From: a virus
Taxonomy: Duplodnaviria; Heunggongvirae; Uroviricota; Caudoviricetes
IMG/VR virus record: IMGVR_UViG_2802429331_000003
Span: 1-64,000 of that record
Direction: 5' to 3' (one strand)
DNA: 64,000 nt
The translations under genes and the position numbers were made by a program. Within the stretch, counting starts at the first letter, position 1, and the number at the start of each line of letters is the position of its first letter. The notes under the pieces are model-generated. The model had not been told where the DNA came from, did not search any database, and worked only from the letters and a program-made list of their open reading frames with translations. Shown here in pieces: positions 6,748 to 52,811 of this stretch.

Positions 6748-7542
6748 TCAGGCGGCTTGGGTGCTGCTGGGCTGCCAGATTTCGCGGGCGGATGGCCCGA
6801 AGACGTTGGGGGCCTGGTCGCGTAGCTCGCGGCCGATCCATGCGGCGATGCGGCGCATTTCCTTATCGACACCGTCGGCATCGCGCTGGATGAGGAAGTC
6901 GATCCAGGCCCGGTAGTTGCCGGTGACAACGATGCGGGTTTCGGCGTTGCCGGGCAGGTGGGCGCGTGCGGCTTCGCGGGCTTCCTTGTGGCTCGCGCCG
7001 CGGCCTCGGTAGATGTCGACCCACTTGTGGTACTTCGACAGAGCTGCGCGGGCGCTCTGTTCGAGGTCGTGGATGGCCTCGGGGTCGTTCTCGTACAGCG
7101 GCGGGATGACGAAGTTGATCTCATCGGCGTCGACGTAGCGCTGGGAGAGTTCCGAACGCGGGATGTGGCGGTGGCGGATCAGTTCGTGGGTCAGCGAGCG
7201 GGAGACGCCGGTGATATAGAAGGTGGCGTTTGCGTGCTCAAGGACGCTCCAATGCTTCTGGCGCAGAATATTTTTCAGGTATCCGCGGGTGGTAGCGGTC
7301 TCGGGGTTCGGGCGCTCCCAGGACTGGTAGCAGGTGCGTCCAGCGAACACCGCCAGCTCTTCGCCGTCGTCGAGGGAGTCCTCTCCGAGGCTGTAGTCCG
7401 GGGTATCCGGGAGCCACAGGCTGGTGGTGGCGATCAGGGCTACATGGGGCTGCACGAACAAACTCACGGCCAGAACCCTATATCCCATGGAACGCTTGGA
7501 ACGGATGGCTTTACACCCTGAAGACGTGTCTATGTGTTGCAA
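6748..7542 (-). CDS. thyX: Flavin-dependent thymidylate synthase ThyX. The true start may be the internal MGYRVL at about 7488.
   Basis: ThyX signature RHRHIPRSELSQRY (RHR-x7-S-x-R) and surrounding HWSVLEHANATFYITGVSRSLTHELIRHR. Confidence 0.8.
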   Translation of the reverse strand: MQHIDTSSGCKAIRSKRSMGYRVLAVSLFVQPHVALIATTSLWLPDTPDYSLGEDSLDDGEELAVFAGRTCYQSWERPNPETATTRGYLKNILRQKHWSVLEHANATFYITGVSRSLTHELIRHRHIPRSELSQRYVDADEINFVIPPLYENDPEAIHDLEQSARAALSKYHKWVDIYRGRGASHKEAREAARAHLPGNAETRIVVTGNYRAWIDFLIQRDADGVDKEMRRIAAWIGRELRDQAPNVFGPSAREIWQPSSTQAA

Positions 7543-37236: not shown

Positions 37237-37403
37237 ATTGAGTTGTGCTCCCGTGTCGGGGTAGAGCCGCTCCCCACCGCGGGCAGCCACCATGGCGGCG
37301 CCACCTGCGATACGGCGGTACGGATTCGCGCGTTGGTTTCACCCGCTTCACACACGCGAGCTGGCAGACGCGCCCCTGCCAAGCTGTGGATTCGGGGAAA
37401 GAG

Positions 37404-37477
37404 CCAGGGCGACAGGACTTGAACCTGCACGGGGCGGCTTTGGAGACCGCTGCTCTACCGAATTGAGCTACGCCCCA
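37404..37477 (-). tRNA. tRNA-Trp (anticodon CCA), phage-encoded, between HNH and terS.
   Basis: Manual fold of the minus-strand sequence TGGGGCG TA GCTC AATTCGGTA GAGC A GCGGT CTCCAAA GCCGC CCCGT GCAGG TTCAAGT CCTGT CGCCCTG G. U8, G18G19, U33, A37 and T54-T55-C56 all present. Acceptor stem has two G-U pairs. No encoded CCA. Coordinates may be off by 1-2 nt. Confidence 0.65.
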
Positions 37478-40381: not shown

Positions 40382-40918
40382 GTGAGGCGCACCCAGTGGA
40401 AGATCCATGGCGAAAACCTGGTGGACGAGAACCGGCATATCCGACTGACGACCGTCGATGTTGAGCTTCCCGATGGAGTGCGGTTCACCCAGTACGTCGC
40501 GCGGATGCCGCGCTGCGCAATGACGTTGGTGCTCAATGACAATCGCGAGGCGCTGCTGATGTACCGGCACCGGTTCATCATCGACCAGTGGGTGTGGGAG
40601 TTGCCGGGCGGATATGTCGACGGCGCCGAGGATGTAGCCGCGGCAGCAGCCCGCGAAGTCGAGGAAGAGACAGGCTGGCGCCCGAGGTCGATGGAACACT
40701 TGGTGACCTACCAGCCCTCAATCGGCAGTCTCGACCAGCCCCAGGAGATCTACCTCGCACGCGGTGCCGATCCAACTGGCAGCGAACCGGATATCAATGA
40801 GGCGGAGGAACTCGGCTGGTTCCCCCTCAGCGAGGCCGCGAAGATGATCGAGCGCGGCGAAATTGTCGGCGCCGCTACCGTAGTCGCGGTGTACCGGGCT
40901 CTCACTCTCGACGTTTAG
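40382..40918 (+). CDS. NUDIX hydrolase (178 aa).
   Basis: Nudix box GGYVDGAEDVAAAAAREVEEETGW (G-x5-E-x7-REVxEExG). Confidence 0.75.
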   Translation: MRRTQWKIHGENLVDENRHIRLTTVDVELPDGVRFTQYVARMPRCAMTLVLNDNREALLMYRHRFIIDQWVWELPGGYVDGAEDVAAAAAREVEEETGWRPRSMEHLVTYQPSIGSLDQPQEIYLARGADPTGSEPDINEAEELGWFPLSEAAKMIERGEIVGAATVVAVYRALTLDV

Positions 40919-42320
40919 TCAGCTCAAGGACCTGGTTCCGGAAGTCGTCCACGTCCGGGAGCTGAGTGTACGGACTCAAGCGGGTCCTCAGTTCCCGCAG
41001 GTAGGCATAGCTGCGGCGTGAAGCCAAACCAGTGGCGATGTCGAGTGCTTGCCGTCCGACTCGCACAGCTTCGTGTGGATCGGCCTCTACGCGTGCGGAG
41101 GCCAGCAGGGCGAGGTTGAAGGCTCGACCTCGGAGGTAGCCGTCCGACATATCGAGCGATTGCTCGGCGAAATGCGCTGTGCGGGCATCGTCGCCCAAGT
41201 CGCGGAAGCAGTGAGCGACCTTCGCGGACATGTACGCCCCGTCGAAATAGCTCAGCCAGGCCGGTCGATCAGAGGCCACGTCCTTGGAAAAGGCGCGCTC
41301 TGCGGCATTGATGGATTTGGCGCACATCGAGTCATCCGTCCGGGCGGCATGACCATGCGCCTCGACCATGTGGCATTCGGACTCCAGCGCCGCCAACCCC
41401 GCGCTGCGCGCGGCGATCTGTGCTGCACGGGCCAGGTCGACTGCATCGCCTGGGCGACCGACGTACGTGGCCTGGTGACTCATGGCGGCGAGGATTTCGG
41501 CTCCGAGTCCTGCGTCCCCGGCTGCTCGTGCAAGACGCAGCGCCTGGATTAGGTATCGCTGCGCAAGCCCATGTTCTTCTTGGTCATATGCTGCCCAGCC
41601 GGCCAGCTTCGTTAACTCGGCTGTGGTCGCGAAGAGTTGGCGGCCGATCGGCTCGGCGTAATTTCCGCGCAGAAGCGGGGCTACCGATCCGTGGAGGTAC
41701 TGGACGATTGTCGCCCGTACTCGTCCGCCGCCAGCCTTGTTGTCCAGTTCGCGAAATGCAGCGGTCATCATGCGTATCGAGTCGATGTCGCTCTGACCCA
41801 CTCGACGCACGCCCATGGATACCGGATGTTCCGGGCCAGGCAGCGTCAGCCATCGCATTGATGCCGCGGGGTACACCGCCACCGCGTACGAGGCTCCGAT
41901 CAGGAACCTTCTGCGCTCCACATCACTCCTCCACAGCGCCGTCACCGACGCTGTTGCTTCGACCAAGCTCAGTGAGAATTCCAGTCCCAGGTCCGCTGGT
42001 TCCTGGTCGCCGGCCATTCCACACTCAAGCGGGGTTATCCGGCGTCCGAGCGCTTCGGTCATCACCTCCGCAATCAGCACCGGTCCAGGGGGATAAGGCT
42101 TTTCACCGTCGAGCCACCGCCCGACCGATCGGTAGTCGTAGGCCAGCTCCACTCCAACAGCGGAAGCCCGGTCGACCACCATTCGCGCGAGCGCTCCACG
42201 ACTGATCCCGGACTCACACAGCAAGTCGTTTAGCTCGACGTTGGGTTGCTTGGGTGGGCGTCCCATAGCGGGAGTGTTGCACGGGCTACACGATCGCGCC
42301 ATCTCTAGTTCGTATCCCAC
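40902..42320 (-). CDS. Actinobacterial XRE-HTH + TPR-like regulator (472 aa), paralog 1.
   Basis: N-terminal HTH (LNDLLCESGISRGALARMV) and long alpha-helical repeat C-terminus; paralogous to 42639..43994. Confidence 0.6.
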   Translation of the reverse strand: MGYELEMARSCSPCNTPAMGRPPKQPNVELNDLLCESGISRGALARMVVDRASAVGVELAYDYRSVGRWLDGEKPYPPGPVLIAEVMTEALGRRITPLECGMAGDQEPADLGLEFSLSLVEATASVTALWRSDVERRRFLIGASYAVAVYPAASMRWLTLPGPEHPVSMGVRRVGQSDIDSIRMMTAAFRELDNKAGGGRVRATIVQYLHGSVAPLLRGNYAEPIGRQLFATTAELTKLAGWAAYDQEEHGLAQRYLIQALRLARAAGDAGLGAEILAAMSHQATYVGRPGDAVDLARAAQIAARSAGLAALESECHMVEAHGHAARTDDSMCAKSINAAERAFSKDVASDRPAWLSYFDGAYMSAKVAHCFRDLGDDARTAHFAEQSLDMSDGYLRGRAFNLALLASARVEADPHEAVRVGRQALDIATGLASRRSYAYLRELRTRLSPYTQLPDVDDFRNQVLELTKRRE

Positions 42321-42638
42321 GCCCCCTCCTCACACCCCCACCCCCAACACGCACAACTACCCCCGCCCCACCCGTTACGGCGACGGGCCCGTTGCGCGTC
42401 TCCTATAGCGCATGGACGTGGCGCAGATCCTTCGTGAAGCCATAACGCAGATGTCCCAACGGCTTCAGCAACGCGCTGTCGACTCACAACCGGATTCGGA
42501 GCAGGAAATGACGATGAATGTGACCGGGCCCCCGGGGAAGCGCCGCGTGAGTGACGTTCCGCCGGAAGGCAAGCCAGACAAAGGGGGACCAGGCTCGGGA
42601 CGGATGCAGTGAACGGAAGCCCCGCCCGCCGGAGTCCC

Positions 42639-43994
42639 TTACGCCGCGAGCAGAACCCGCGTCCGCTCGTTGAACTCCGCCACCAGCGGGTGTGCGCCGA
42701 ACGAGTTCATCTTCTGCTGCACATCACGGACGGCCTCAATCGACCTCGAGGACTTGACCTTCCGGGAAAGATCGAGGGTCTGCACGCCGGCGGCGTACGC
42801 GGCCTCAAGGTCGCGCTTCTGGATCTGAGCGACTGCCAATGCAGCGTGCGACAGGGCGCCGCGACGCGCCCGGTTCTGGTTTCGGGCGTAGCTGATCGAC
42901 CTTTGGGCGTGTGGCTCAGCGTGATCCGGCAAACCGAGGTCGCGGAACGCATTGGCCCACTCGCCGCAGATGTACGCCTGGTCGATGAATCGAGCCCATT
43001 CCGGTTCCTGTTCCGGATTTACGGAAGAGAAGGCGCGTTCGGCCTCGTTGACCGCATGGCTGGTGCCGGACTTGTCGCCCAAGGTTGCGAGTGCTCGCGC
43101 TTCCAGCGTCCACAGATCTGCCAGACATGCAGGGGAATTCGCTCGCGCGAGACCTTGCCGACCGGCTTGGGCGAGGCGGCGGCCTTCTTCGGGGTGGCCC
43201 AGCAGCGTTGCCTGGTCCGCCATACCCGCAAGCACATGAGCGCCAAGGGCGGGATCGCGCGATTCCTCGGCGAATCGAAGGGCTTGGATCAGGTACCGCT
43301 GCGCGGTCCCGTGTTCCCCGTTGTCGAATGCCATCCAGCCGAGCAAGTATGTCTGCTCGGCTGCTGCGCCACACAGCGCACGGCGGGTCTCTTCGGTGTG
43401 TGTCCGCCCGAGAAGGGGATACACATGCTCGTTCATGTATGCGGCCAGGACCAGCCGACCGGAGCCGCCGCCCTGGAAGATGTCCATCTCCTGGAAGGTG
43501 CTGAACATGTTCTTCACCGCGGTGACGTCTTCGAGTCGCACTTTCTGACGCTCGTCAGGCAGCTGGTCGAGGGTGTTGAGCAGCCAATCGCGCGAGGGCT
43601 CGACAACAGCCGCCAAGGCGAAGGGTGCGGCAGTGAGGAATTTGCGGCGGTCCACGTCGGCCCTTCCCAGGTCGGTTACTGCTTCGATCGTTCGTGTCAA
43701 CGATGGGCTGTAGGTAAGGGCTCGGTCAACCGCATACGGATCGGCGAAGCCGAGATCGGCCACGGTCACCCGGTAGCCAAACCGGGACGAGAACAAATCC
43801 GCAAGGATCGCCGGCACCGGCGGCCGAGGCTGTTCCCCATCCTCCACCCAACGGCGGACGCTCGAGGTGTCCGGCCGAATCTGCGGCTCACCCCATTCGA
43901 TCGCGAGGGCACGCACCTTGCGCGCGAACTCGCCACGGCTCCAGCCCGAGCGAGCCAGCCAGTCCGAAAGCTTCACATTCGGAGCCTTCATCAC
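42639..43994 (-). CDS. Actinobacterial XRE-HTH + TPR-like regulator (451 aa), paralog 2.
   Basis: N-terminal HTH (LSDWLARSGWSRGEFARKV); same architecture as 40902..42320. Confidence 0.6.
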   Translation of the reverse strand: MMKAPNVKLSDWLARSGWSRGEFARKVRALAIEWGEPQIRPDTSSVRRWVEDGEQPRPPVPAILADLFSSRFGYRVTVADLGFADPYAVDRALTYSPSLTRTIEAVTDLGRADVDRRKFLTAAPFALAAVVEPSRDWLLNTLDQLPDERQKVRLEDVTAVKNMFSTFQEMDIFQGGGSGRLVLAAYMNEHVYPLLGRTHTEETRRALCGAAAEQTYLLGWMAFDNGEHGTAQRYLIQALRFAEESRDPALGAHVLAGMADQATLLGHPEEGRRLAQAGRQGLARANSPACLADLWTLEARALATLGDKSGTSHAVNEAERAFSSVNPEQEPEWARFIDQAYICGEWANAFRDLGLPDHAEPHAQRSISYARNQNRARRGALSHAALAVAQIQKRDLEAAYAAGVQTLDLSRKVKSSRSIEAVRDVQQKMNSFGAHPLVAEFNERTRVLLAA

Positions 43995-44140
43995 ACCACC
44001 TGTTCAGATCTCGCGGCCGGCAGATTCAACACCTCTTCAACACCCCCAAAGAACTTACTCGTCGCAGGTCACACCTTCCACACTCAAATAATCCTGGCTG
44101 GGGGTAGGCAGGCCGCCCAGCCCGCACAAGAGGGGCAACA

Positions 44141-44488
44141 ATGAGGGACACACCAACCGCTGTGGGGTATCTCCGCACCGACATCAGCGGACAACACCAG
44201 CAATGGGATGAAACCCGAATGCGTAACCGCGCAGCGCGTTTGGGCTACAAGCTCGCCAAGACTGTGGCGTTCAGCAACCGCCAGGACCAGCCGATCGAGA
44301 AGCTCGTGGAGACGGTTCGCAAGGTTGGGGCGGAAGCGGTATTCGTCCCCGGGCCACAACATTTCGAAGGTCAGCGGATTCCCGTCGAGATCGTGCAGAT
44401 CGCCGATGTGGTCACCGTCGACCCGGAAGGCACCTACGCGCGCAGGGCAACCGGCGACGTGCCCGACCTGAACGAGACGCAGCGATGA
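44141..44488 (+). CDS. Degenerate serine-recombinase (resolvase) N-domain-like protein lacking the catalytic Ser, paralog 1 (115 aa).
   Basis: AVGYLRTDISGQHQQ...RAARLGYKLAKTV resembles the resolvase opening GYxRVSTxxQ...G.......D but has D-I-S-G where R-V-S-T is expected. 4-nt overlap with the next gene. Confidence 0.4.
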   Translation: MRDTPTAVGYLRTDISGQHQQWDETRMRNRAARLGYKLAKTVAFSNRQDQPIEKLVETVRKVGAEAVFVPGPQHFEGQRIPVEIVQIADVVTVDPEGTYARRATGDVPDLNETQR

Positions 44489-45087
44489 CGGCTACCGGGC
44501 CGAAACCGCGGAGGCCCAAGGCAGTTGGCTACATCCGCGGCGATGTGGCCGGTCACCACCTGGACAGGCATGCCAACGAGATCGCGCTTCTGGCGCGACG
44601 AATGGGCTATCAGCTGATCTACATCGTGCGGCTGTGGCCGCAGTCGGTGCCGGAGCCGCTTCGACACGTACTCGGTATCGCCGCGGGATTGGATGCCGCC
44701 GCGGTGATCGTTCCCGACCTGGAACATGTCGACAACCAGCCGGGCCTTGTCTGCGACCTGTGCGACCTGATCACCGTGTTCCCCGAAGAAACCTGGGCAC
44801 GCGCGCTGCCTCTCCACAGCGACCCGTGCGAAGAGATGACGGTGAAGGACGCTCACCGAACTATGCAGGTACACATCACCTGCCGAGCCATGCATTGCTC
44901 GCGGAAAGCCGCCGCGCTGAAGACGCTCGTCGGTGCAGGGAGGGTCAAGCCGGCGACCCTCAGTCCACGGCAACGAGCGGCGGACCGCGGCCTCAAGTTC
45001 GAAGTCGCCGACACCGAACCCGACCTATCCCCCGGCGCCGACCTACAGACCTTGCTCGACGTCCTCGACGGGCTCCGGCGAGTGTGA
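44485..45087 (+). CDS. Degenerate resolvase N-domain-like protein, paralog 2 (200 aa).
   Basis: AVGYIRGDVAGHHLDRHANEIALLARRMGYQLIYIVR...AVIVPDLEHVDNQ; the catalytic Ser is absent. Confidence 0.4.
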   Translation: MTATGPKPRRPKAVGYIRGDVAGHHLDRHANEIALLARRMGYQLIYIVRLWPQSVPEPLRHVLGIAAGLDAAAVIVPDLEHVDNQPGLVCDLCDLITVFPEETWARALPLHSDPCEEMTVKDAHRTMQVHITCRAMHCSRKAAALKTLVGAGRVKPATLSPRQRAADRGLKFEVADTEPDLSPGADLQTLLDVLDGLRRV

Positions 45088-45111
45088 AATCCAACGAATA
45101 GAGGCAAGAAG

Positions 45112-46191
45112 ATGATCACGCGAACACTGGGAAGCTCCGGGATCGAGGTTTCCGGACTTGGAATCGGCTGCTGGGCGATCGGCGGGCCGGACACCAACTT
45201 GGGCCTGCCGATGGGCTGGGGACCAGTTGACGAGTCGGCTGCCATCGCTGGGCTTGAGCGTGCGTGGGAATCTGGCGTCACCCTTTTCGACACCGCGGAC
45301 GTTTACGGACACGGCCGCTCGGAACGCCTTCTCGGGCAGCTGGTCCCGCTGGTGCAGCGCGAGCGCATCCAGCTGGTGTCGAAAGTCGGCTACTTCGCCG
45401 GAACCGCGGCCCACGGCTACGACCCTGGCCACATGCGCCGCCAACTCGAACAAACCCTGGACAACCTGAACACCGACTGGCTGGACGTGTACTTCTTCCA
45501 CCACAGCGAATTCGGCCCCGATGACGAGCGCTTGGAGCTGGCCATCGAAATGATGAACAACTTCCGCACGGAGGGCCTGATCCGCGCGATCGGGATGCGA
45601 GGGCCGCACCGCTACGCACCCGACAGGCTGTCGACCGGGCCGAAAGCCAACAAAGAAGCCCGATTCCGGGAGCTGTTCGACCGCATCCGACCCCAGGTCC
45701 TCGCAGTTCGTGACAACCTGCTGACACCCCAGACCCGATCAAACAGCATCTTCACTTTCGCTGAGGACCACGGCTGCGGCGTCCTGATCAACAAGCCGCT
45801 ATCGCAGGGCCTGCTGACAGGCGCGTACACCACAGCCGAGCCCCGTACATTCGGGCCGCAGGATCACCGTGCCCGCAAACGCTGGTTCACCGGCGACGCG
45901 GTGCGGGTGATCGAGGCCGGCCTGGACCAGGTGCGCGCGCTCGTCGGCCCCGAGTCGAACGATCTCGTCCGGATAGCTCTCTGGTCCTGCCTGATGCGCT
46001 CGGACAACGCGGCGGTACTCGTCGGTTTCAGCGATCCGCAGCAAGTACAGGCCAATATTGATTGCTTGGGAGAACGGCCCGGCGACGAGATCCTCGAGCA
46101 GGTTCGCGCGATCATGGCCGACGTCCAAAAGCAGCTCGACGCCGACGGCGAGGTATTCGTGGACGAGGTATCAACAGGAGAGCAGCAATGA
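45112..46191 (+). CDS. Aldo/keto reductase family oxidoreductase (359 aa).
   Basis: AKR N-terminus LGSSGIEVSGLGIGCWAIGG and overall TIM-barrel AKR pattern. Confidence 0.75.
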   Translation: MITRTLGSSGIEVSGLGIGCWAIGGPDTNLGLPMGWGPVDESAAIAGLERAWESGVTLFDTADVYGHGRSERLLGQLVPLVQRERIQLVSKVGYFAGTAAHGYDPGHMRRQLEQTLDNLNTDWLDVYFFHHSEFGPDDERLELAIEMMNNFRTEGLIRAIGMRGPHRYAPDRLSTGPKANKEARFRELFDRIRPQVLAVRDNLLTPQTRSNSIFTFAEDHGCGVLINKPLSQGLLTGAYTTAEPRTFGPQDHRARKRWFTGDAVRVIEAGLDQVRALVGPESNDLVRIALWSCLMRSDNAAVLVGFSDPQQVQANIDCLGERPGDEILEQVRAIMADVQKQLDADGEVFVDEVSTGEQQ

Positions 46192-46970
46192 CGATCAGCA
46201 GCGAATCCGAGATCCGCTTGATGACGCTGAACGTCCAGCGCGCCAGCGAGGTCCGCGCACACCACCAGGTGGCGTGGCTTTCCGAGTACGCGGCCGACGT
46301 CGTGGTCCTCACCGAGGTGTCCGCCGGGCGCGCTGGAGATGTCACTGCCCGCCTGCTCGAGGAAGCGGGCTACAGCGTGCATCTGTCGAAGCCGGGAGAC
46401 GACAACTACCGGGTGCTACTGGCCGCGCGCGGAGTGGTCGAACCGATCGAGGCCGCAATCACAGTGATGCCCAACCGATTCGTGTTCGCTGGCATCAAGC
46501 CGTCCACGGGGTCCTGCTTCTCCGTCGCAGGACTGTATGTCCCTTCACGCGGGCCGAAGGAAGCACGAAACGTCGCAAAACGGGCATTCCAGGAGGCGGT
46601 TGCCGCGACCCTTCCGCAACTAGCCGAGCAGGTTGAGGTCGGCCCCTGTGTCATCACCGGCGACCTCAATGTGGTCGAGCCAGGGCACACACCGCACTAC
46701 AAAGTGTTCGGCACGTGGGAATACGACTTCTACCGATCCTTCGCCGCCAATGGCTTCACCGATGCGTTCCGGCTCCGCCACCCGGACCTGGTCGACCATT
46801 CATGGTTTGGCCGGCCGGCTAAGAACGGCAGCCGCAATGGATATCGGTTCGACCACACCTTCATCAGCACCGAGCATCGCGACCTCGTCTCCGACTGCTA
46901 TTACGAGCACCAGCCACGGCTTGACGGCATCAGCGACCACGCCGCGATGATCCTGACCCTGCGTATGTAA
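46188..46970 (+). CDS. Endonuclease/exonuclease/phosphatase (EEP) family protein (260 aa); ATGA-coupled to the AKR gene.
   Basis: EEP signatures LTEVSAGRAGD, ITGDLNVVEPGH, SDHAAMILTL. Confidence 0.65.
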   Translation: MTISSESEIRLMTLNVQRASEVRAHHQVAWLSEYAADVVVLTEVSAGRAGDVTARLLEEAGYSVHLSKPGDDNYRVLLAARGVVEPIEAAITVMPNRFVFAGIKPSTGSCFSVAGLYVPSRGPKEARNVAKRAFQEAVAATLPQLAEQVEVGPCVITGDLNVVEPGHTPHYKVFGTWEYDFYRSFAANGFTDAFRLRHPDLVDHSWFGRPAKNGSRNGYRFDHTFISTEHRDLVSDCYYEHQPRLDGISDHAAMILTLRM

Positions 46971-47069
46971 CCCATTCCCTACCAACACCCTTCAGCGCCC
47001 GACCCCAGATCGGCTCGCGCTGCGGCCCAGTGCTGCCGAAAACCGGTCGGACACCCCGCCCAGAACGGC

Positions 47070-49211
47070 ATGCCCATGCATCACACCGACCCCGTCACCT
47101 ACCGCATCCTCCGTGCGGTCGCTCTCGCCAACGGTGACACCACTACGACCGCAAAGCTTCTCACAGACCTCCACCTCACCGAGCCCAACCGGCTGCGAGA
47201 CATGCTCGCGACCACGATGCCCGCACGCGTCGTCGTCACCGGCACGCTCGACCGCCGCCTCCTCCTGGTCGAACATGAAGACCACGCCACCTGGACAATC
47301 GCCGAACTGTCCGGTCAGCCGCTTTCCGACCGCGACTGGCCCACCTGGGCGCGTGACGGAATCGTGTTCGAGGAAGGCGACTCCTGGATCAGCAACGCGA
47401 ATCTGAACGAAGCAGCGGAACACCGATTCGCTCGCCCTGCCGTGCTACTGACGGCTCTCTACCATCCGGAGTACTTCCCGCTGCCCCGGTTTCCCTTGGC
47501 CATCAGCGATCTCGCCCGCGCGGCCCGCGCCACCCTCACAGGCCACACCACGTTGATGGACATGCAGCTGGGCGTCACCCTCGACGACATCATCGAGGCG
47601 GTCCATACGCGCAGACCCGACATCCTCGGCATCTCAGCGACATTCGGCCAACATGACCTCCTCGTGAATCTGCTCGAGGACATCGAGTCACTTCACGATC
47701 GGCCGCTGGTCATCGCCGGAGGCAGCCTCACGGCCCGCAACGAACACCTCCTGCTGGAACGCTGGCCGTGGTTGCTGATCGCCCGCGGCGCCGGCGAACC
47801 CACGATCGCCGACACGCTCGCATTCTGGAATCGTGACATCGGCTTCAGCGAGATCCGCGGCATCGGCTACGTCGGCGCCGCACGTGGAGAAGGAACTCTG
47901 GCCATCGGCCGCTACCGCAAATCCGCGACCGTCCCCAACCGGACCAGCACCGACATCTTCCCCGAACTCGACCTTCTGGCACCGACTTTCGAAAACCTGG
48001 GCGTCGCGCAACTCGAGTCCTCCCGCGGCTGCACCAACTACTGCTCCTTCTGCCCCCGCGGCCACAAAGGAAAGTGGTCCGGCGTCCCACCGGAGCAACT
48101 GCCAATGATCGTGTCGGCCATGGGCGATGTATTCGACCGATATCCCCAAATCGCGAGGACGCTCTATCTGGTCGATGAAGAATTCGTTGGCCGCGGCCCG
48201 GACGCTGTCGATCGCGCCCTCAACGTCGCCGAGGTCCTCCACCAGCAACGCTTCGCCTGGGAAACCTCCTGCCGAGTCGACCAGGTCGTGCGCACCGATA
48301 CCGACCGGGCCTGGCATCTCGAACGCGCGCAAATGTGGAGATCGTTGTGCGAGAAGGGACTTCGGCGCTGCTTGTTCGGCGTCGAATCGGGCGTGACGTC
48401 GATCCTCACCAGGTTCAACAAGGAGACCACCGGTGAGCAGAATGCCCTGGCGATCAGAACCCTGTCCGCGCTCGGCGTGCCGACCAGATTCACTTACATC
48501 ACCTTCGACCACCTCATGACCGAAGCCGAACTGCGAAGCACCTACCACTTTCAATCCCGCACTGACCTCATCCTGAAGCCACTGCCCCACATGCCGATCG
48601 AGGACATCATCGACGGCGTCCGAGACGAATCCTTCGTCGCCGAGCACACCACCGGCCGACCCTTCTACACCGGCATCTCCTACATGCTCGTCTCGATGGA
48701 ATGCCTAATCGGCGCCGCGTACACCAAACAGGTCCAGGCCGCCGGACTCGCCGGCGCGGCCCGACCGTCGATGGGACGCCTCGACGCCCAATTCGCGGAT
48801 CGCCGAATCGGCGTCCTGTCCCAGCACGCACAGCTCTGGGTCGACCGGCATTTCGCCCTCGACTACACCCTCAAGTCGCTGGAAAAGATCCTCGACGGCC
48901 ACCCTCGCGCTGCGGCAAGAGGAGCACGAGGAGTCATCAAAGACGCGGCATTCGAACTCTTCAGCGACATGCTCGACACTCTCGACGTGTGGTCGCCGGA
49001 CAGCACCGACCTCGACGGATTGGCAACCATCCTCACCAAAATGATGGACGCACGCTTGGAACCACTGGCCGAACGTATGACGAAAACCGTTGCCGGCCTG
49101 CGACAGATCCTGCCTCCCGATGACCGGCAACTCCTCGACGTCGAGTTCGACCGATGGACCGACCGCAGCGGATGGGAACTGATCAACGCAGCCGATCCAT
49201 GCGGAACCTAG
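47070..49211 (+). CDS. B12-binding-domain radical SAM enzyme (class B rSAM), 713 aa, with an extra N-terminal domain of about 130 aa and a long C-terminal extension.
   Basis: Radical SAM cluster motif SSRGCTNYCSFCPRG (CxxxCxxC); upstream cobalamin-binding-like Rossmann segment DILGISATFGQHDLLVNLLEDIESLHDRPLVIAGGSLT. Confidence 0.75.
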   Translation: MPMHHTDPVTYRILRAVALANGDTTTTAKLLTDLHLTEPNRLRDMLATTMPARVVVTGTLDRRLLLVEHEDHATWTIAELSGQPLSDRDWPTWARDGIVFEEGDSWISNANLNEAAEHRFARPAVLLTALYHPEYFPLPRFPLAISDLARAARATLTGHTTLMDMQLGVTLDDIIEAVHTRRPDILGISATFGQHDLLVNLLEDIESLHDRPLVIAGGSLTARNEHLLLERWPWLLIARGAGEPTIADTLAFWNRDIGFSEIRGIGYVGAARGEGTLAIGRYRKSATVPNRTSTDIFPELDLLAPTFENLGVAQLESSRGCTNYCSFCPRGHKGKWSGVPPEQLPMIVSAMGDVFDRYPQIARTLYLVDEEFVGRGPDAVDRALNVAEVLHQQRFAWETSCRVDQVVRTDTDRAWHLERAQMWRSLCEKGLRRCLFGVESGVTSILTRFNKETTGEQNALAIRTLSALGVPTRFTYITFDHLMTEAELRSTYHFQSRTDLILKPLPHMPIEDIIDGVRDESFVAEHTTGRPFYTGISYMLVSMECLIGAAYTKQVQAAGLAGAARPSMGRLDAQFADRRIGVLSQHAQLWVDRHFALDYTLKSLEKILDGHPRAAARGARGVIKDAAFELFSDMLDTLDVWSPDSTDLDGLATILTKMMDARLEPLAERMTKTVAGLRQILPPDDRQLLDVEFDRWTDRSGWELINAADPCGT

Positions 49212-49816
49212 CTGGCGGCCTCGGGAATCGGTACCCAGTTGAACTCAGGGCAGAACCGCGCATAGGTGGTGAGCTTCCAGGCCGCGTACTCCTCCAACCG
49301 GCCCGTATCCCGAAGCAGATGCTTCACCCAGGTGTGCGCGATCCGCTCAGGGTCGGTCATGGTCGCCTCGATGTCGTCGAGCATCCGGCATGCAACCGCG
49401 AAGTCCTCCTCGGTCTGCACGCTCAGGTCGACCTCGACCTCATCGACGGAAAACACGTACACCAACCGGGTCGTCGAGGTGCTGGTGAAACGCTCACCCT
49501 TGAACTTCGCGTGCCGGTCGATGACGGAGCGCAGCTGCTCGCGCTCGTCGACCGGCCAGCCGATAGCAAGATCGAGGTCGCTGGTCTCGAGATTGCAGCG
49601 CAGTCCGAACGATCCGACATCGCGGGGCTCGCGGCCGGTCCATTCTCGGATGAGGTCTGACGCCTTCGTTCGGGTGGCGAGCAATCGCGCGTCATGGGCG
49701 CGGCGCGCCTGCCAGAATGCCTGTGCCCGAGCCCATTCCGCGGCCGGAAAGTCGTTTGGTTCGGCCCAACCCGAGGCCACGATCGCATCCAGGTCGAACA
49801 CCTTCGCGTCTGTCAC
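49208..49816 (-). CDS. Minimal nucleotidyltransferase (Pol-beta superfamily) with helical C-terminal domain, 202 aa; convergent and stop-overlapping with the rSAM gene.
   Basis: NTase motif VGSFGLRCNLETSDLDLAI (G-S-x9-13-D-x-D) and third acidic strand RLVYVFSVDEVEVDLSV. Confidence 0.65.
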   Translation of the reverse strand: MTDAKVFDLDAIVASGWAEPNDFPAAEWARAQAFWQARRAHDARLLATRTKASDLIREWTGREPRDVGSFGLRCNLETSDLDLAIGWPVDEREQLRSVIDRHAKFKGERFTSTSTTRLVYVFSVDEVEVDLSVQTEEDFAVACRMLDDIEATMTDPERIAHTWVKHLLRDTGRLEEYAAWKLTTYARFCPEFNWVPIPEAAS

Positions 49817-49900
49817 AGGGGCAGGCTACCGTCACAACGTCGCAGATCACCGTGTTACACGAAACTGACTCGCCCAAATGAAACCTTGAAGGGATCCTTG

Positions 49901-50362
49901 GTGCCGTACCTCAACCACGTTGACGTTCACCTCCTGCTCGTGCGCGATGACCAGATCTTCCTGGCTCGCCGAGCCAACACGGGGTACGCCGATGGGCTAT
50001 GGAATCTCCCCTCCGGAAAGCTCGACCCGGGTGAGGATCTCATCGCCGCAGTCATGCGCGAGGCGAATGAAGAGGTCGGGTTGGAGCTGGAGCGCCCCGC
50101 GATGCAGCTGGCGACCGTCGTTCACAAGCATGCGCCGGACGGTCCTGCGCGGGTCGGGACGTTCTTCCTCGCGACACGCTGGGTCGGCGAGCCCCGCAAT
50201 GCAGAGCCGCACAAGTGCAGTGAGATCGCATGGTTCCCCATCGACGAATTGCCTGACGATGTTGTGCCCTACAGCAGGGCAGGGATCGAGCAGTGGCGCC
50301 GTGGTGAATCGTTTGGCCTGCTCGACTGGCCGCACCATCGACTCGCAACCGGTGCCGCATGA
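49901..50362 (+). CDS. NUDIX hydrolase (about 153 aa).
   Basis: GTG start after GAAGGGA; Nudix box GKLDPGEDLIAAVMREANEEVG. Confidence 0.75.
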   Translation: MPYLNHVDVHLLLVRDDQIFLARRANTGYADGLWNLPSGKLDPGEDLIAAVMREANEEVGLELERPAMQLATVVHKHAPDGPARVGTFFLATRWVGEPRNAEPHKCSEIAWFPIDELPDDVVPYSRAGIEQWRRGESFGLLDWPHHRLATGAA

Positions 50363-50898
50363 TGTGGACGATTCGCAGAGCGGAGTCCGGCGACGGTCTT
50401 CGGCTCCGCTCGCTTCGACTCCAGGCACTAACCGACGCGCCGGAAGCCTTCCTCGAGACTTACGACCAGGCGGTGGCCCTCGAACCTGGAGAGTGGGAAT
50501 CGCGCATAGAACGGTCACGGCAGCCAGGGCACCAACTCCTGGTCGTGGGTGAGGCCGGCGGAATCTGGTTGGGTATGGCAGGGGCTTTCGTGGATTGCGA
50601 TCGCGACTCTGCGGATCTGACGATTCCGGTTGGTCCGCAAGATCGTTGGGCGATGCTCTGGGGCATGTATGCGGTCCCAACAGTTCGCGGCCAGGGCCTC
50701 GCCGCTGAATTGTGCACTGAAGCGCGCAAGTGGGCGGCCATCGAAGCGCGTGTGAGCTGGCTGGGTCTGGACGTACGGGATTCAAACGCTCGCGCGATCC
50801 GGTTCTACCGGCGCGAGGGATTCGAAGTCGTGGCCCGCCGCGAGCACCGCGAGTTGGGTGTGACATCACTGGTGATGGTGCAACCGGTTGCTATCTGA
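50359..50898 (+). CDS. GNAT family N-acetyltransferase (179 aa); its last about 6 codons lie in the palindromic repeat junction.
   Basis: GNAT motif A-like VPTVRGQGLAAELCTEARKWAAIEARVSWLGLDVRDSNARAIRFYRREGFE; 4-nt overlap with the NUDIX gene. Confidence 0.7.
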   Translation: MMWTIRRAESGDGLRLRSLRLQALTDAPEAFLETYDQAVALEPGEWESRIERSRQPGHQLLVVGEAGGIWLGMAGAFVDCDRDSADLTIPVGPQDRWAMLWGMYAVPTVRGQGLAAELCTEARKWAAIEARVSWLGLDVRDSNARAIRFYRREGFEVVARREHRELGVTSLVMVQPVAI

Positions 50899-51459
50899 CT
50901 TGCGCCATGTCGGCCACCGGCCTACGGGAAGCGCGTGAACGATGCCGAGCCACTCGCAGTGCCGACAGCTCGGCATCTTCATGTCACAGTGACGTTTCCA
51001 TCGAGACCCTAGGCCAGGCTCGAATGCCCGCCGCTGGAGCCGAATCCGCCGGTTCCACGTTCGGCTTCCTCCAGCTGCTCGACACATTCGAAGTCGACCA
51101 GCTCGATGCGCTGAACGATTAGCTGCGCGATGCGGTCGCCGCGGCGGATCTCGATCGGGGTGCGCGGATCCAGGTTGATCAGGCAGACCTTGACCTCGCC
51201 GCGGTAGCCGGCGTCGATGGTGCCGGGCGCATTAACGATCGACAGGCCGGCTTTGGCGGCGAGGCCCGATCGCGGATGGATGAGCCCGACCGTTCCGATT
51301 GGGAGTTCCAGCGCGATGCCAGTGCCGACGAGCACCCGCTCCCCCGGCCCGATGACCTCGTCGTTAGTCGTGCGCAGATCCACGCCGGCATCGCCTTCGT
51401 AGATGCGGACGAGGTCGAACCAGGTGGGGTCTGATTTCCGGTATCGAATGGGTTCGCGG
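50892..51459. repeat. Copy A of an approximately 570-bp unit (dut + 3' flank), reference orientation.
   Basis: Identical ORF strings recur on opposite strands in the ORF track (e.g. 51217..51402 + equals 51520..51705 -). Flanked on the left by the 12-bp palindrome gcaaccggttgc. Confidence 0.8.
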
Positions 51460-51464
51460 GTCAC
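51009..51464 (-). CDS. dut: dUTP diphosphatase (dUTPase), 151 aa; the only full-length copy.
   Basis: dUTPase motifs [52 protein letters not shown]. Confidence 0.85.
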
Positions 51465-52036
51465 GCGAACCCATTCGATACCGGAAATCAGACCCCACCT
51501 GGTTCGACCTCGTCCGCATCTACGAAGGCGATGCCGGCGTGGATCTGCGCACGACTAACGACGAGGTCATCGGGCCGGGGGAGCGGGTGCTCGTCGGCAC
51601 TGGCATCGCGCTGGAACTCCCAATCGGAACGGTCGGGCTCATCCATCCGCGATCGGGCCTCGCCGCCAAAGCCGGCCTGTCGATCGTTAATGCGCCCGGC
51701 ACCATCGACGCCGGCTACCGCGGCGAGGTCAAGGTCTGCCTGATCAACCTGGATCCGCGCACCCCGATCGAGATCCGCCGCGGCGACCGCATCGCGCAGC
51801 TAATCGTTCAGCGCATCGAGCTGGTCGACTTCGAATGTGTCGAGCAGCTGGAGGAAGCCGAACGTGGAACCGGCGGATTCGGCTCCAGCGGCGGGCATTC
51901 GAGCCTGGCCTAGGGTCTCGATGGAAACGTCACTGTGACATGAAGATGCCGAGCTGTCGGCACTGCGAGTGGCTCGGCATCGTTCACGCGCTTCCCGTAG
52001 GCCGGTGGCCGACATGGCGCAAGTCAGATAGCAACC
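51465..52036. repeat. Copy B, inverted relative to A; dut copy lacks the native start codon.
   Basis: Mirror image of A around centre about 51462 (ttcgcg ggtca cgcgaa). ORF 51539..51913 + encodes a dUTPase identical to A from Met28. Confidence 0.8.
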
Positions 52037-52405
52037 GGTTGCTATCTGACTTGCGCCATGTCGGCCACCGGCCTACGGGAAGCGCGTGAACGATGCCGAG
52101 CCACTCGCAGTGCCGACAGCTCGGCATCTTCATGTCACAGTGACGTTTCCATCGAGACCCTAGGCCAGGCTCGAATGCCCGCCGCTGGAGCCGAATCCGC
52201 CGGTTCCACGTTCGGCTTCCTCCAGCTGCTCGACACATTCGAAGTCGACCAGCTCGATGCGCTGAACGATTAGCTGCGCGATGCGGTCGCCGCGGCGGAT
52301 CTCGATCGGGGTGCGCGGATCCAGGTTGATCAGGCAGACCTTGACCTCGCCGCGGTAGCCGGCGTCGATGGTGCCGGGCGCATTAACGATCGACAGGCCG
52401 GCTTT
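52037..52405. repeat. Copy C, same orientation as A, truncated at about 52405 (dut 3' portion only).
   Basis: Perfect spacer-less palindrome centred at about 52036 (agatagc aaccggtt gctatct). ORF 52160..52438 encodes the dut C-terminus. Confidence 0.8.
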
Positions 52406-52811
52406 GGCGGCGCGGCCCGGGGCCCACCGGTACGCCATGGCGCGGCACAGGAACGAATCGGAGCACCCGCCGCGCCGAGGGCGCGCCAGCGTCAGCGACT
52501 CGCGAGCCGTTGGCGCGCGCCATCCGTGCCGTGTTCGCGCCGAATGGTCGCCGCGCGACGTTCTTGCAGGTCAGAGCCCTTTTTCTTCTTTACGTGAGAC
52601 TTAGGCCAGACTTACTTAGTCTCACCTAAATCATCTCGAATACCCCCTCTGACCTGGCATTTCACCGCAGGACTTGACATGTCGCCGCACTACCATCTAG
52701 CTTCGTTTCTCGTCACCGACCAACGGCGACAGCGACGGACCGGCCAGCCACCACGGCGGGCCGCGACAACAGCCCGGACTCACCGGCCGGGCGAACGATG
52801 GGAGACCCGAA

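Follow-up and report, generated by a model that had tools for sequence, protein, structure and literature searches.

The stretch of DNA analysed here (the window) comprises positions 1 to 64,000 of the IMG/VR virus record IMGVR_UViG_2802429331_000003 and is an integrated Bantamvirus-like prophage of Nocardia terpenica. It carries a cassette of genes around a 713-residue radical S-adenosylmethionine (SAM) enzyme (cobalamin-dependent; called rSAM below) of the family of OxsB, the enzyme of oxetanocin-A biosynthesis. New at this locus is a pathway of OxsB type in a novel gene architecture, widespread in actinomycetes and borne here by a prophage. The features of the region are as follows (nt, nucleotides; aa, amino acids).

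40382-40918, plus strand: upstream NUDIX hydrolase, 178 aa (PF00293, E = 8e-18)
40902-42320, minus strand: regulator 2, an NsdA-family protein with helix-turn-helix (HTH) and tetratricopeptide repeat (TPR) domains, 472 aa (NF053720, E = 7.8e-126, 421 bits against a cut-off of 75)
42639-43994, minus strand: regulator 1, NsdA-family HTH plus TPR protein, 451 aa, divergent from the cassette (NF053720, E = 2e-130, 436 bits against a cut-off of 75)
43995-44140, 146 nt: divergent intergenic region, presumed promoter/operator with a putative regulatory role
44141-44488, plus strand: p115, single-domain paralogue of the N-terminal domain of p200, presumed regulatory accessory
44485-45087, plus strand: p200, with a resolvase-fold N-terminal domain and a Cys-containing helical C-terminal domain
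45112-46191, plus strand: aldo-keto reductase (AKR), 359 aa (PF00248, E = 3e-33)
46188-46970, plus strand: EEP-fold protein of the ExoIII/APE1 family, 260 aa (PF03372, E = 1e-7)
47070-49211, plus strand: rSAM, OxsB-family cobalamin-dependent radical SAM enzyme, 713 aa (711 aa from the alternative start at 47076)
49208-49816, minus strand: small Pol-beta-fold nucleotidyltransferase (NTase), 202 aa, convergent with rSAM
49901-50362, plus strand: MutT-like NUDIX hydrolase, 153 aa (PF00293, E = 1.4e-20)
50359-50898, plus strand: GNAT acetyltransferase, 179 aa (PF00583, E = 1.4e-11)
51009-51464, minus strand: dUTPase (dut) (PF00692), phage context outside the conserved cassette

A preliminary description of this DNA, made by a model from the letters and translations, had placed the five plus-strand genes from p115 to rSAM in one apparent transcription unit with 4-nt overlaps or gaps under 100 nt, and the map of open reading frames together with the domain scans confirms these coordinates. 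The p115 and p200 genes share a 4-nt ATGA overlap, 24 nt separate p200 from the AKR gene, the AKR and EEP genes overlap by 4 nt, and 99 nt lie between EEP and rSAM. The stop codons of rSAM and the convergent NTase overlap as described, the palindrome CTAG at 49208-49211 being common to the rSAM stop (TAG, 49209-49211) and to that of the NTase gene. The NUDIX and GNAT genes (49901-50362 and 50359-50898) overlap by 4 nt and are translationally coupled, dut adjoins them, and the two HTH plus TPR regulators lie on the opposite strand, again as first described; the upstream NUDIX gene and that of regulator 2 overlap convergently over 17 nt (40902-40918). The Pfam matches that had been expected for AKR, EEP, NUDIX and GNAT (PF00248, PF03372, PF00293 and PF00583) were all found.

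By its sequence, the 713-aa enzyme is a full-length four-domain homologue of OxsB, of the non-methylating, ring-contraction branch. From the deoxyribose of dAMP, dADP or dATP, OxsB makes by ring contraction the oxetane of oxetanocin-A; it is a non-methylase whose N-terminal domain is unique and whose C-terminus forms a helix bundle (PMC9204698). A profile of the rSAM family run against the PDB found OxsB (5UL2) with E = 7e-110 in one stretch, residues 51-707 of rSAM aligning with 47-740 of OxsB. A search of solved structures with the single sequence gave OxsB as the one strong match (E = 5e-78), and in BLASTP the two proteins aligned over 583 residues (31% identity, 50% positives, E = 6e-89). 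Domain I, the Rossmann cobalamin-binding domain, the radical SAM barrel and the C-terminal helix bundle all fall within the OxsB alignment. The Pfam domains PF02310 and PF04055, predicted for this protein in the preliminary description, were both detected, but both just short of the Pfam cut-offs. The Fe-S motif is C321-x3-C325-x2-C328; its position after a cobalamin-binding-like domain and the additional terminal domains, which had been noticed from the sequence alone, are confirmed and match OxsB, and the extra N- and C-terminal domains are there because the OxsB architecture has them. The N-terminal domain was also considered as a recognition element for ribosomally synthesized and post-translationally modified peptides (RiPP), an idea dropped once it had been aligned with domain I of OxsB. 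The premise that a class-B enzyme of this kind would be a C-methyltransferase fails, since its homologue OxsB is from the non-methylating branch.

Using the list of OxsB residues in PMC9204698 for the alignment, we found R330, H332, K333, E370/E371, E439, K451 and E544 to be invariant in 18 family members; their counterparts in OxsB, which contact SAM and cobalamin there, are Arg323, His325, Lys326, Glu363, Glu436, Lys448 and Glu545. It is the stretch D369-E370-E371 that aligns with Glu363 of the OxsB GGE motif. Of the motifs for base-off/His-off cobalamin, GG (G217, G218) and GE (G242, E243) are present and invariant, and in the motif G187-x-S189-x-T191 an invariant Thr191 stands where OxsB has Asn186. 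Both the four-domain architecture and the SAM and cobalamin contact residues are shared with OxsB, which is encoded with OxsA on a Bacillus megaterium plasmid (oxsA, oxsB; PDB 5UL2-5UL4; PMC9204698).

In AKR the catalytic tetrad D60, Y65, K91 and H130 is at least 95% conserved among 60 orthologues, and the nearest solved structures are IolS/AKR11A, GSP69 and perakine reductase. The catalytic residues of the EEP protein (N15, E43, D159, N161, D222, D250 and H251) are invariant, and its family profile matches B. subtilis ExoA (5cfe, E = 2e-19) and the structure 3g91 (E = 1e-18), which places it in the ExoIII/APE1 family; it is not an Xth equivalog, scoring 65 bits with TIGR00633 (xth) against a cut-off of 99. 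We predict that it is either a phosphatase/phosphodiesterase for a nucleotide product or a 3'-end-cleaning nuclease. The identification of the 202-aa protein as a Pol-beta-type nucleotidyltransferase holds, with the G-S...D-x-D motif, the third carboxylate and the NTase fold all present. In structure it comes nearest to GrpB-type domains rather than to cGAS/DncV-like cyclases, and a role in self-protection or tailoring is suggested. The NUDIX protein at 49901-50362 matches MutT-type NCBIfam models below their cut-offs and is a candidate pyrophosphatase for (d)NTP analogues; homologues 44-48% identical to it follow rSAM-AKR in Salinispora, Micromonospora and Actinoallomurus.

To define the spread of the gene set we collected rSAM homologues and the genes around them. 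The rSAM protein had 725 homologues among the candidates scored. The best 119, the identical copy being excluded, are 59-77% identical to it and nearly all close to full length, and every named genome among them is from Actinomycetota. There were 192 matches in 185,579 species genomes, and a profile search of the full library (E <= 1e-30) gave 267 clusters, counted as 50%-identity representatives including fragments. For neighbourhood counts 80 actinobacterial species loci were kept, and a gene within 7 kb of rSAM was taken as a partner. AKR adjoins rSAM in 75 of these 80 loci, and at least one nucleotide phosphohydrolase is found in 76 (CYTH in 32, EEP in 39, NUDIX in 23); a P-loop kinase and a DegT aminotransferase are further partners. 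The commonest architecture is rSAM-AKR-CYTH (about 32 loci). The form seen in the window, in which NTase is convergent with AKR-EEP-rSAM, comes next with about 22 loci, then a larger set that includes EEP, NUDIX, P-loop kinase and DegT aminotransferase (about 17 loci), and lastly rSAM-AKR-NUDIX (4 loci). Linkage of AKR-EEP-rSAM and of rSAM with NTase, for which a neighbourhood search had been proposed, therefore recurs across actinomycete genomes. The genes for AKR, EEP, rSAM and NTase keep together although their order takes at least four forms (Nocardia, Streptomyces, Actinosynnema and Frankia), which argues for functional coupling among them. The co-conservation expected for the whole gene set holds for these four genes and fails for GNAT and dut: among the sampled loci both are found only in L081, a Logan contig that is an independent assembly of the same prophage, and tblastn found GNAT in this identical contig alone; dut was absent from all of the 80 species loci. 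An unrelated GNAT gene lies near the cassette in Nocardia sp. A7.

The rSAM gene of the window is thus an OxsB homologue with conserved cofactor sites, tightly coupled to AKR and to nucleotide phosphohydrolases. We read the cassette as the phage's copy of a gene set widespread in actinobacteria, one that would make an oxetanocin-type (ring-contracted) nucleoside or nucleotide analogue, and give this reading about an even chance of being right. In the proposed route the OxsB-family enzyme, using SAM, a [4Fe-4S] cluster and cobalamin, would convert the sugar of a 2'-deoxynucleotide (by analogy dAMP, dADP or dATP) to an oxetane aldehyde. The adjoining AKR would reduce the aldehyde to a hydroxymethyl group, as a dedicated counterpart of the cellular dehydrogenase of the oxetanocin-A route; its co-occurrence in 75 of 80 loci and its intact catalytic tetrad point to this role. 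The ExoIII-like EEP protein and the MutT-like NUDIX hydrolase may stand in for the HD phosphohydrolase OxsA and take phosphates off a toxic triphosphate; alternatively, the EEP protein may trim analogue-blocked 3' DNA ends. The convergent NTase, an obligate partner in the sub-architecture of the window, probably tailors or neutralizes the product. The two divergent regulators of the NsdA family, together with p115 and p200, probably govern expression.

Ring contraction, aldehyde reduction and dephosphorylation, the steps of the oxetanocin-A route, map to rSAM, AKR and EEP/NUDIX. That route needs an aldehyde reductase which its cluster does not encode and which is supplied by a cellular dehydrogenase whose gene is unidentified (PMC7074753, PMC9204698, PMC13331322). 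A dedicated AKR is what the cassette of the window has and the oxs cluster lacks (PMC7074753), and AKR is a testable candidate for a step that has never been assigned to a gene. The cassette differs further in having no HD-domain OxsA, with EEP, NUDIX or CYTH in that place in 76 of the 80 loci, in its additional NTase, in its NsdA-type regulation, and in being actinobacterial and phage-borne.

So far only oxetanocin-A and albucidin are known as oxetane nucleosides, and only two enzymes of OxsB type (PMC13331322). The sole other characterized relative of OxsB is AlsB, 44% similar to it, which forms the same intermediate and is interchangeable with OxsB (PMC13331322). AlsB/AlbB, from the albucidin cluster of Streptomyces albus subsp. 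chlorinus (albA-albB-albC), resembles rSAM in being an actinobacterial OxsB homologue that does without OxsA, and shows that the same ring contraction is compatible with about 44% similarity to OxsB (PMC13331322, PMC7074753). In albucidin biosynthesis a second radical SAM enzyme, AlsA, removes the aldehyde carbon, and the cluster has albC, a gene like those of ribonucleotide reductase (RNR) (PMC13331322, PMC7074753). The island of the window, unlike the albucidin cluster, has neither a biotin-synthase-like second radical SAM gene nor an RNR-like one, and no such neighbour family was found among the 80 loci, where AKR is the constant partner. Because AKR is constant and no AlsA-type enzyme is present, we predict an oxetanocin-like product that keeps the hydroxymethyl group rather than an albucidin-like one. 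A layout resembling that of albucidin (rSAM-rSAM-NUDIX) was seen in a proteobacterium, on the Agrobacterium pusense plasmid NZ_CP123353.1 (our locus L095, 6569-10439), where an OxsB-like gene of 43% identity stands ahead of another radical SAM gene and a gene for a NUDIX hydrolase; GalE, an MFS transporter and a restriction endonuclease are encoded in the vicinity.

The larger variant of the actinobacterial set (for example L078 and L079, and the plasmid copy L096) consists of rSAM, a P-loop kinase, a DegT aminotransferase, a 232-aa protein, EEP, NUDIX and AKR. The plasmid copy, from Nocardia sp. NBC_01327 (NZ_CP108384.1), adds a formyltransferase. Such sets suggest amino or formylamino derivatives of the same scaffold. 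Some clusters for nucleoside antibiotics protect their producer with a NUDIX hydrolase and an N-acetyltransferase, as Pur7 and Pac do for puromycin. By analogy, the nucleotide-modifying enzyme, NUDIX, aminotransferase, kinase and GNAT seen across OxsB-like loci might be compared with puromycin-type clusters, from which the window differs in that its GNAT is not co-conserved with the cassette. The locus points to a large, uncharacterized branch of the OxsB family with a dedicated AKR and several interchangeable phosphohydrolases. Testable candidates for the steps still missing could come from this branch, and so could novel nucleoside scaffolds of antiviral or herbicidal use, amino and formylamino variants included.

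The distribution of the genes also bears on the two functions first proposed for them, DNA hypermodification of the phage and, in defence or counter-defence, a nucleotide second messenger made by NTase and destroyed by NUDIX. The position of the cassette in a prophage beside dut, with NUDIX genes on both of its flanks, would suit either. The sampled homologous loci, however, are chromosomal or plasmid-borne (five large plasmids carry rSAM homologues), with no phage genes identified nearby, though some have genes for an integrase or transposase close by, and neither the phage records searched nor IMG/VR yielded a second phage copy. Moreover, OxsB-type enzymes use free nucleotides (PMC9204698). 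These two points make DNA hypermodification unlikely as a general function. The first proposal of a nucleotide-directed pathway in a phage accessory island holds. The making and destruction of a messenger has no specific support, as NTase covaries with AKR-EEP-rSAM and not with NUDIX and is missing from most of the 80 rSAM loci; its GrpB-like rather than cyclase-like fold and the lack of an effector gene argue in the same direction. The core genes are instead of a known secondary-metabolite type (oxetanocin/albucidin) and syntenic in the chromosomes or plasmids of about 80 actinomycete species, which goes against the original proposals, and we regard hypermodification or a messenger as very improbable.

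An oxetanocin-type product has a number of observations against it as well. The enzyme is only 31% identical to OxsB. The residue nearest cobalt in OxsB, Asn186, is replaced by Thr191, and the cysteines have the canonical CX3CX2C spacing where OxsB has CX4CX2C, by a one-residue insertion in the alignment. Just two members of the 267 family clusters have been characterized and, given this and the low identity, the chemistry may vary across the family. No HD-domain OxsA was found in the genes scanned at 40382-50898, though OxsB needs OxsA nearby, and the island has one radical SAM gene only, without a second one of AlsA type. No exporter is conserved with the cassette among the 80 loci, so that a secreted antibiotic is not obvious. 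Finally, the functions given above to NTase, GNAT and p115/p200 are guesses.

Some of these differences would also fit an rSAM enzyme that carries out another radical reaction, such as a methylation or a different rearrangement, possibly on a nucleotide-derived signal or cofactor; the cluster would then be a regulatory or metabolic module of actinobacteria, tied to NsdA/WhiJ-type developmental control and carried by the phage as an auxiliary or lysogenic-conversion set. Besides the 31% identity, the changed cysteine spacing and the Asn186-to-Thr replacement, this would be in keeping with the ability of OxsB to methylate dAMP in vitro (PMC9204698) and with the strong enrichment of developmental-type regulators around the loci. 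It would also be in keeping with accessory enzymes that differ by lineage (CYTH in one, DegT, formyltransferase and kinase in another), which implies different end products. Nevertheless, the two characterized members share ring contraction at only 44% mutual similarity (PMC13331322), the near-universal AKR suits an aldehyde product, and CYTH, NUDIX, EEP, P-loop kinase and NTase families act mostly on nucleotides or phosphorylated substrates. On balance a different reaction seems to us improbable.

The gene set lies, as the preliminary description had it, in the accessory region of a phage, with integrase, excisionase, structural genes and terminase in the window. A tyrosine integrase gene, cut by the start of the window, and an excisionase gene at 1-2077 form the left border of the prophage. 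A thymidylate synthase is encoded at 6748-7542, and endolysin, minor tail protein, a 2852-aa tape measure, major head protein, portal and terminase are encoded on the minus strand between 12.8 and 36.8 kb. A tRNA-Trp(CCA) gene (37403-37477) lies just upstream of the terminase end of this late operon. Positions 39208-59816 are 100% identical to scaffold KV411304.1 (4.64 Mb) of Nocardia terpenica GCA_001625105.1, the NTase protein is 100% identical to a protein of that species, and the same cassette is present in three further assemblies of N. terpenica type. Gordonia phage DatBoi has a terminase 65% identical to the one encoded here. With DatBoi, Bantam and Daredevil, Bantamvirus-type phages of Gordonia, the prophage shares PHROG functional families among its structural genes (their order was not directly compared), as well as nucleotide-metabolism cargo and a tRNA beside the terminase, which in the Gordonia phages lie between it and the genome end. 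In those phages, however, the cargo consists of thymidylate synthase, dihydrofolate reductase, and phosphoribosyl pyrophosphate and nicotinate transferases, and none has an OxsB-like gene; the element in the window differs also in being integrated, with an integrase and an excisionase.

The guanine plus cytosine (GC) content of the island (37.5-52.5 kb) is 63.8%, against 63.6-65.6% elsewhere in the prophage; for rSAM homologues on Nocardia chromosomes it is 66-69%. Because the GC content of the cassette cannot be separated from that of the rest of the prophage, a long residence in the phage is suggested, although this is not decisive. The cassette had no megablast match in 50,697 phage records, and tblastn of rSAM against the same records found only a match of 22% coverage to a gut phage contig, of doubtful relevance. 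A pattern scan of IMG/VR with the family alignment confirmed no relative, and our literature search found nothing relevant joining OxsB or oxetanocin with phage, aldo-keto reductase or genome context. The phage may make a poison of DNA replication, which has not previously been reported for a phage. If an oxetanocin-type analogue is indeed made, its pathway would be the first of its kind on a phage, where the product could act as a replication inhibitor against phages or bacteria in competition with it, or against the host in lytic growth. One would then have to ask if nucleoside antimetabolites serve phages or lysogens as weapons towards their competitors.

Within 50880-52419 parts of dut are present in duplicate, as two perfect (100%) palindromes. 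The arms of the first are 50880-51458 and 51464-52042, with a 5-nt spacer, and those of the second 51654-52039 and 52034-52419. An independent assembly (L085) joins 51471 straight to 52463 and another contig (L086) stops exactly at 51471; we take the palindromes for a probable fold-back artefact in the assembly GCA_001625105.1. Between 37000 and 53500 Rfam showed no cobalamin or SAM riboswitch, the matches being only the tRNA and spurious miRNA ones due to the dut palindrome.

Carriage by a prophage suits yet another purpose for the same chemistry, an intracellular antiviral or anti-replication defence in which an oxetane nucleotide, made by the prophage and likewise by the chromosomal copies, would poison the DNA polymerases of superinfecting phages; we think this unlikely. 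Prokaryotic viperins (pVips) are radical SAM enzymes that turn a normal nucleotide into an analogue that poisons polymerases. They are not B12-dependent, act on a ribonucleotide, yield ddhNTP (a 3'-deoxy-3',4'-didehydro nucleoside triphosphate) and are single-gene defence systems. Only if its product acts inside the cell would the cassette be functionally analogous to them as makers of chain terminators, and NUDIX, the ExoIII-like EEP protein and NTase would in that case protect the producer. The lack of a conserved exporter fits an intracellular nucleotide poison, and oxetanocin-A has been described as an antiviral agent (PMC9204698, PMC13331322). A few defence genes occur close to homologous loci: a BsuBI/PstI-type (type II) restriction-modification pair in N. 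otitidiscaviarum (L094, 2301-4744), a TIR-AAA protein with a NUDIX hydrolase in Frankia sp. R82 (L098, 11053-13615), the restriction endonuclease near the Agrobacterium locus, and Cas and DruE (Druantia-type) genes among the flanks.

Searches of PADLOC-DB v2 gave no match for rSAM, AKR, EEP, NTase, GNAT, p115, p200 or the regulators, and a match for NUDIX only to the candidate family PDC-S07. This last match favours defence, whereas the failure of every core protein to match speaks against it and agrees with the first impression that no named defence system is present. The flanks of the 80 loci encode mostly WhiJ-type XRE/DUF5753 regulators, anti-sigma-like kinases, sigma factors and methyltransferases. 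Clear defence matches amount to about 6 of 149 flanking proteins, matches to mad2 and mad3 are probably those same regulator families (not checked member by member), and there is no phage-sensing component. We propose with little confidence that a temperate actinophage uses a regulated pathway, by which a normal deoxynucleotide would become an oxetane nucleotide within the lysogen, as a chemical weapon of superinfection exclusion or replication poisoning, with the ExoIII-like nuclease, NUDIX and NTase as its immunity kit. Were it true, the homologous chromosomal cassettes, which occur in about 190 of roughly 185,000 species genomes sampled, would be an unrecognized family of B12-dependent small-molecule antiviral systems, mechanistically parallel to viperins.

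Whatever its product, the cassette is headed by regulators that recur at related loci. Regulators 1 and 2 (436 and 421 bits, above the NF053720 cut-off, over model positions 2-432) belong to the NsdA family, and both score under the NsdA and NsdB equivalog cut-offs. An NsdA/TPR-type regulator lies within 7 kb of rSAM in 33 of the 80 loci. In Streptomyces sp. ID05-26A (L064) a 54%-identical homologue of the upstream NUDIX and an NsdA-type gene stand directly ahead of rSAM-AKR-CYTH. The intergenic region at 43995-44140 holds, by sequence and repeat scan, an imperfect palindrome (44008-44025) and, ahead of the p115 start, a Shine-Dalgarno-like site, AGAGGGG. No sigma-70 consensus was found in this region, and consensus scans for promoters and terminators gave fewer matches than in shuffled sequence.

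The first two genes of the cassette had been described as degenerate resolvase-like proteins, and this is borne out: both keep the fold of the resolvase catalytic domain, and the catalytic Ser is replaced. The family consensus is V-R-T-D-x-S-G, in which an Asp stands two residues past the invariant Arg in place of the nucleophile of R-x-S. The p115 protein is 32% identical to the N-terminal domain of p200; neither has a Pfam, NCBIfam or PADLOC match, and both, like the p200 family as a whole, are confined to Nocardia. Lone p200 homologues are divergent from XRE(DUF5753)/DUF397 pairs, and in N. otitidiscaviarum an NsdA-like gene and one p200-like gene come directly ahead of AKR-EEP-rSAM. These genomic contexts point to a regulatory rather than catalytic role for p200, and we infer that p115 and p200 are a catalytically dead resolvase-fold pair, a regulatory module that also heads other Nocardia operons. 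In Nocardia sp. NPDC088792 (L088/L089, 8001-16690) a module of minus-strand NsdA, p115-like and p200-like genes heads a different nucleotide-type operon, which encodes an NAD-epimerase, an APH-like kinase, two DCD proteins (dCTP deaminase/dUTPase fold), PPDK_N, an AAA_18 kinase, an AKR and NTP_transf_5. The bacterial artificial chromosome for albucidin carries, upstream of albA-C, genes for a thymidylate kinase and a pyruvate phosphate dikinase and the essential 'gene 12' of unknown function (PMC7074753).

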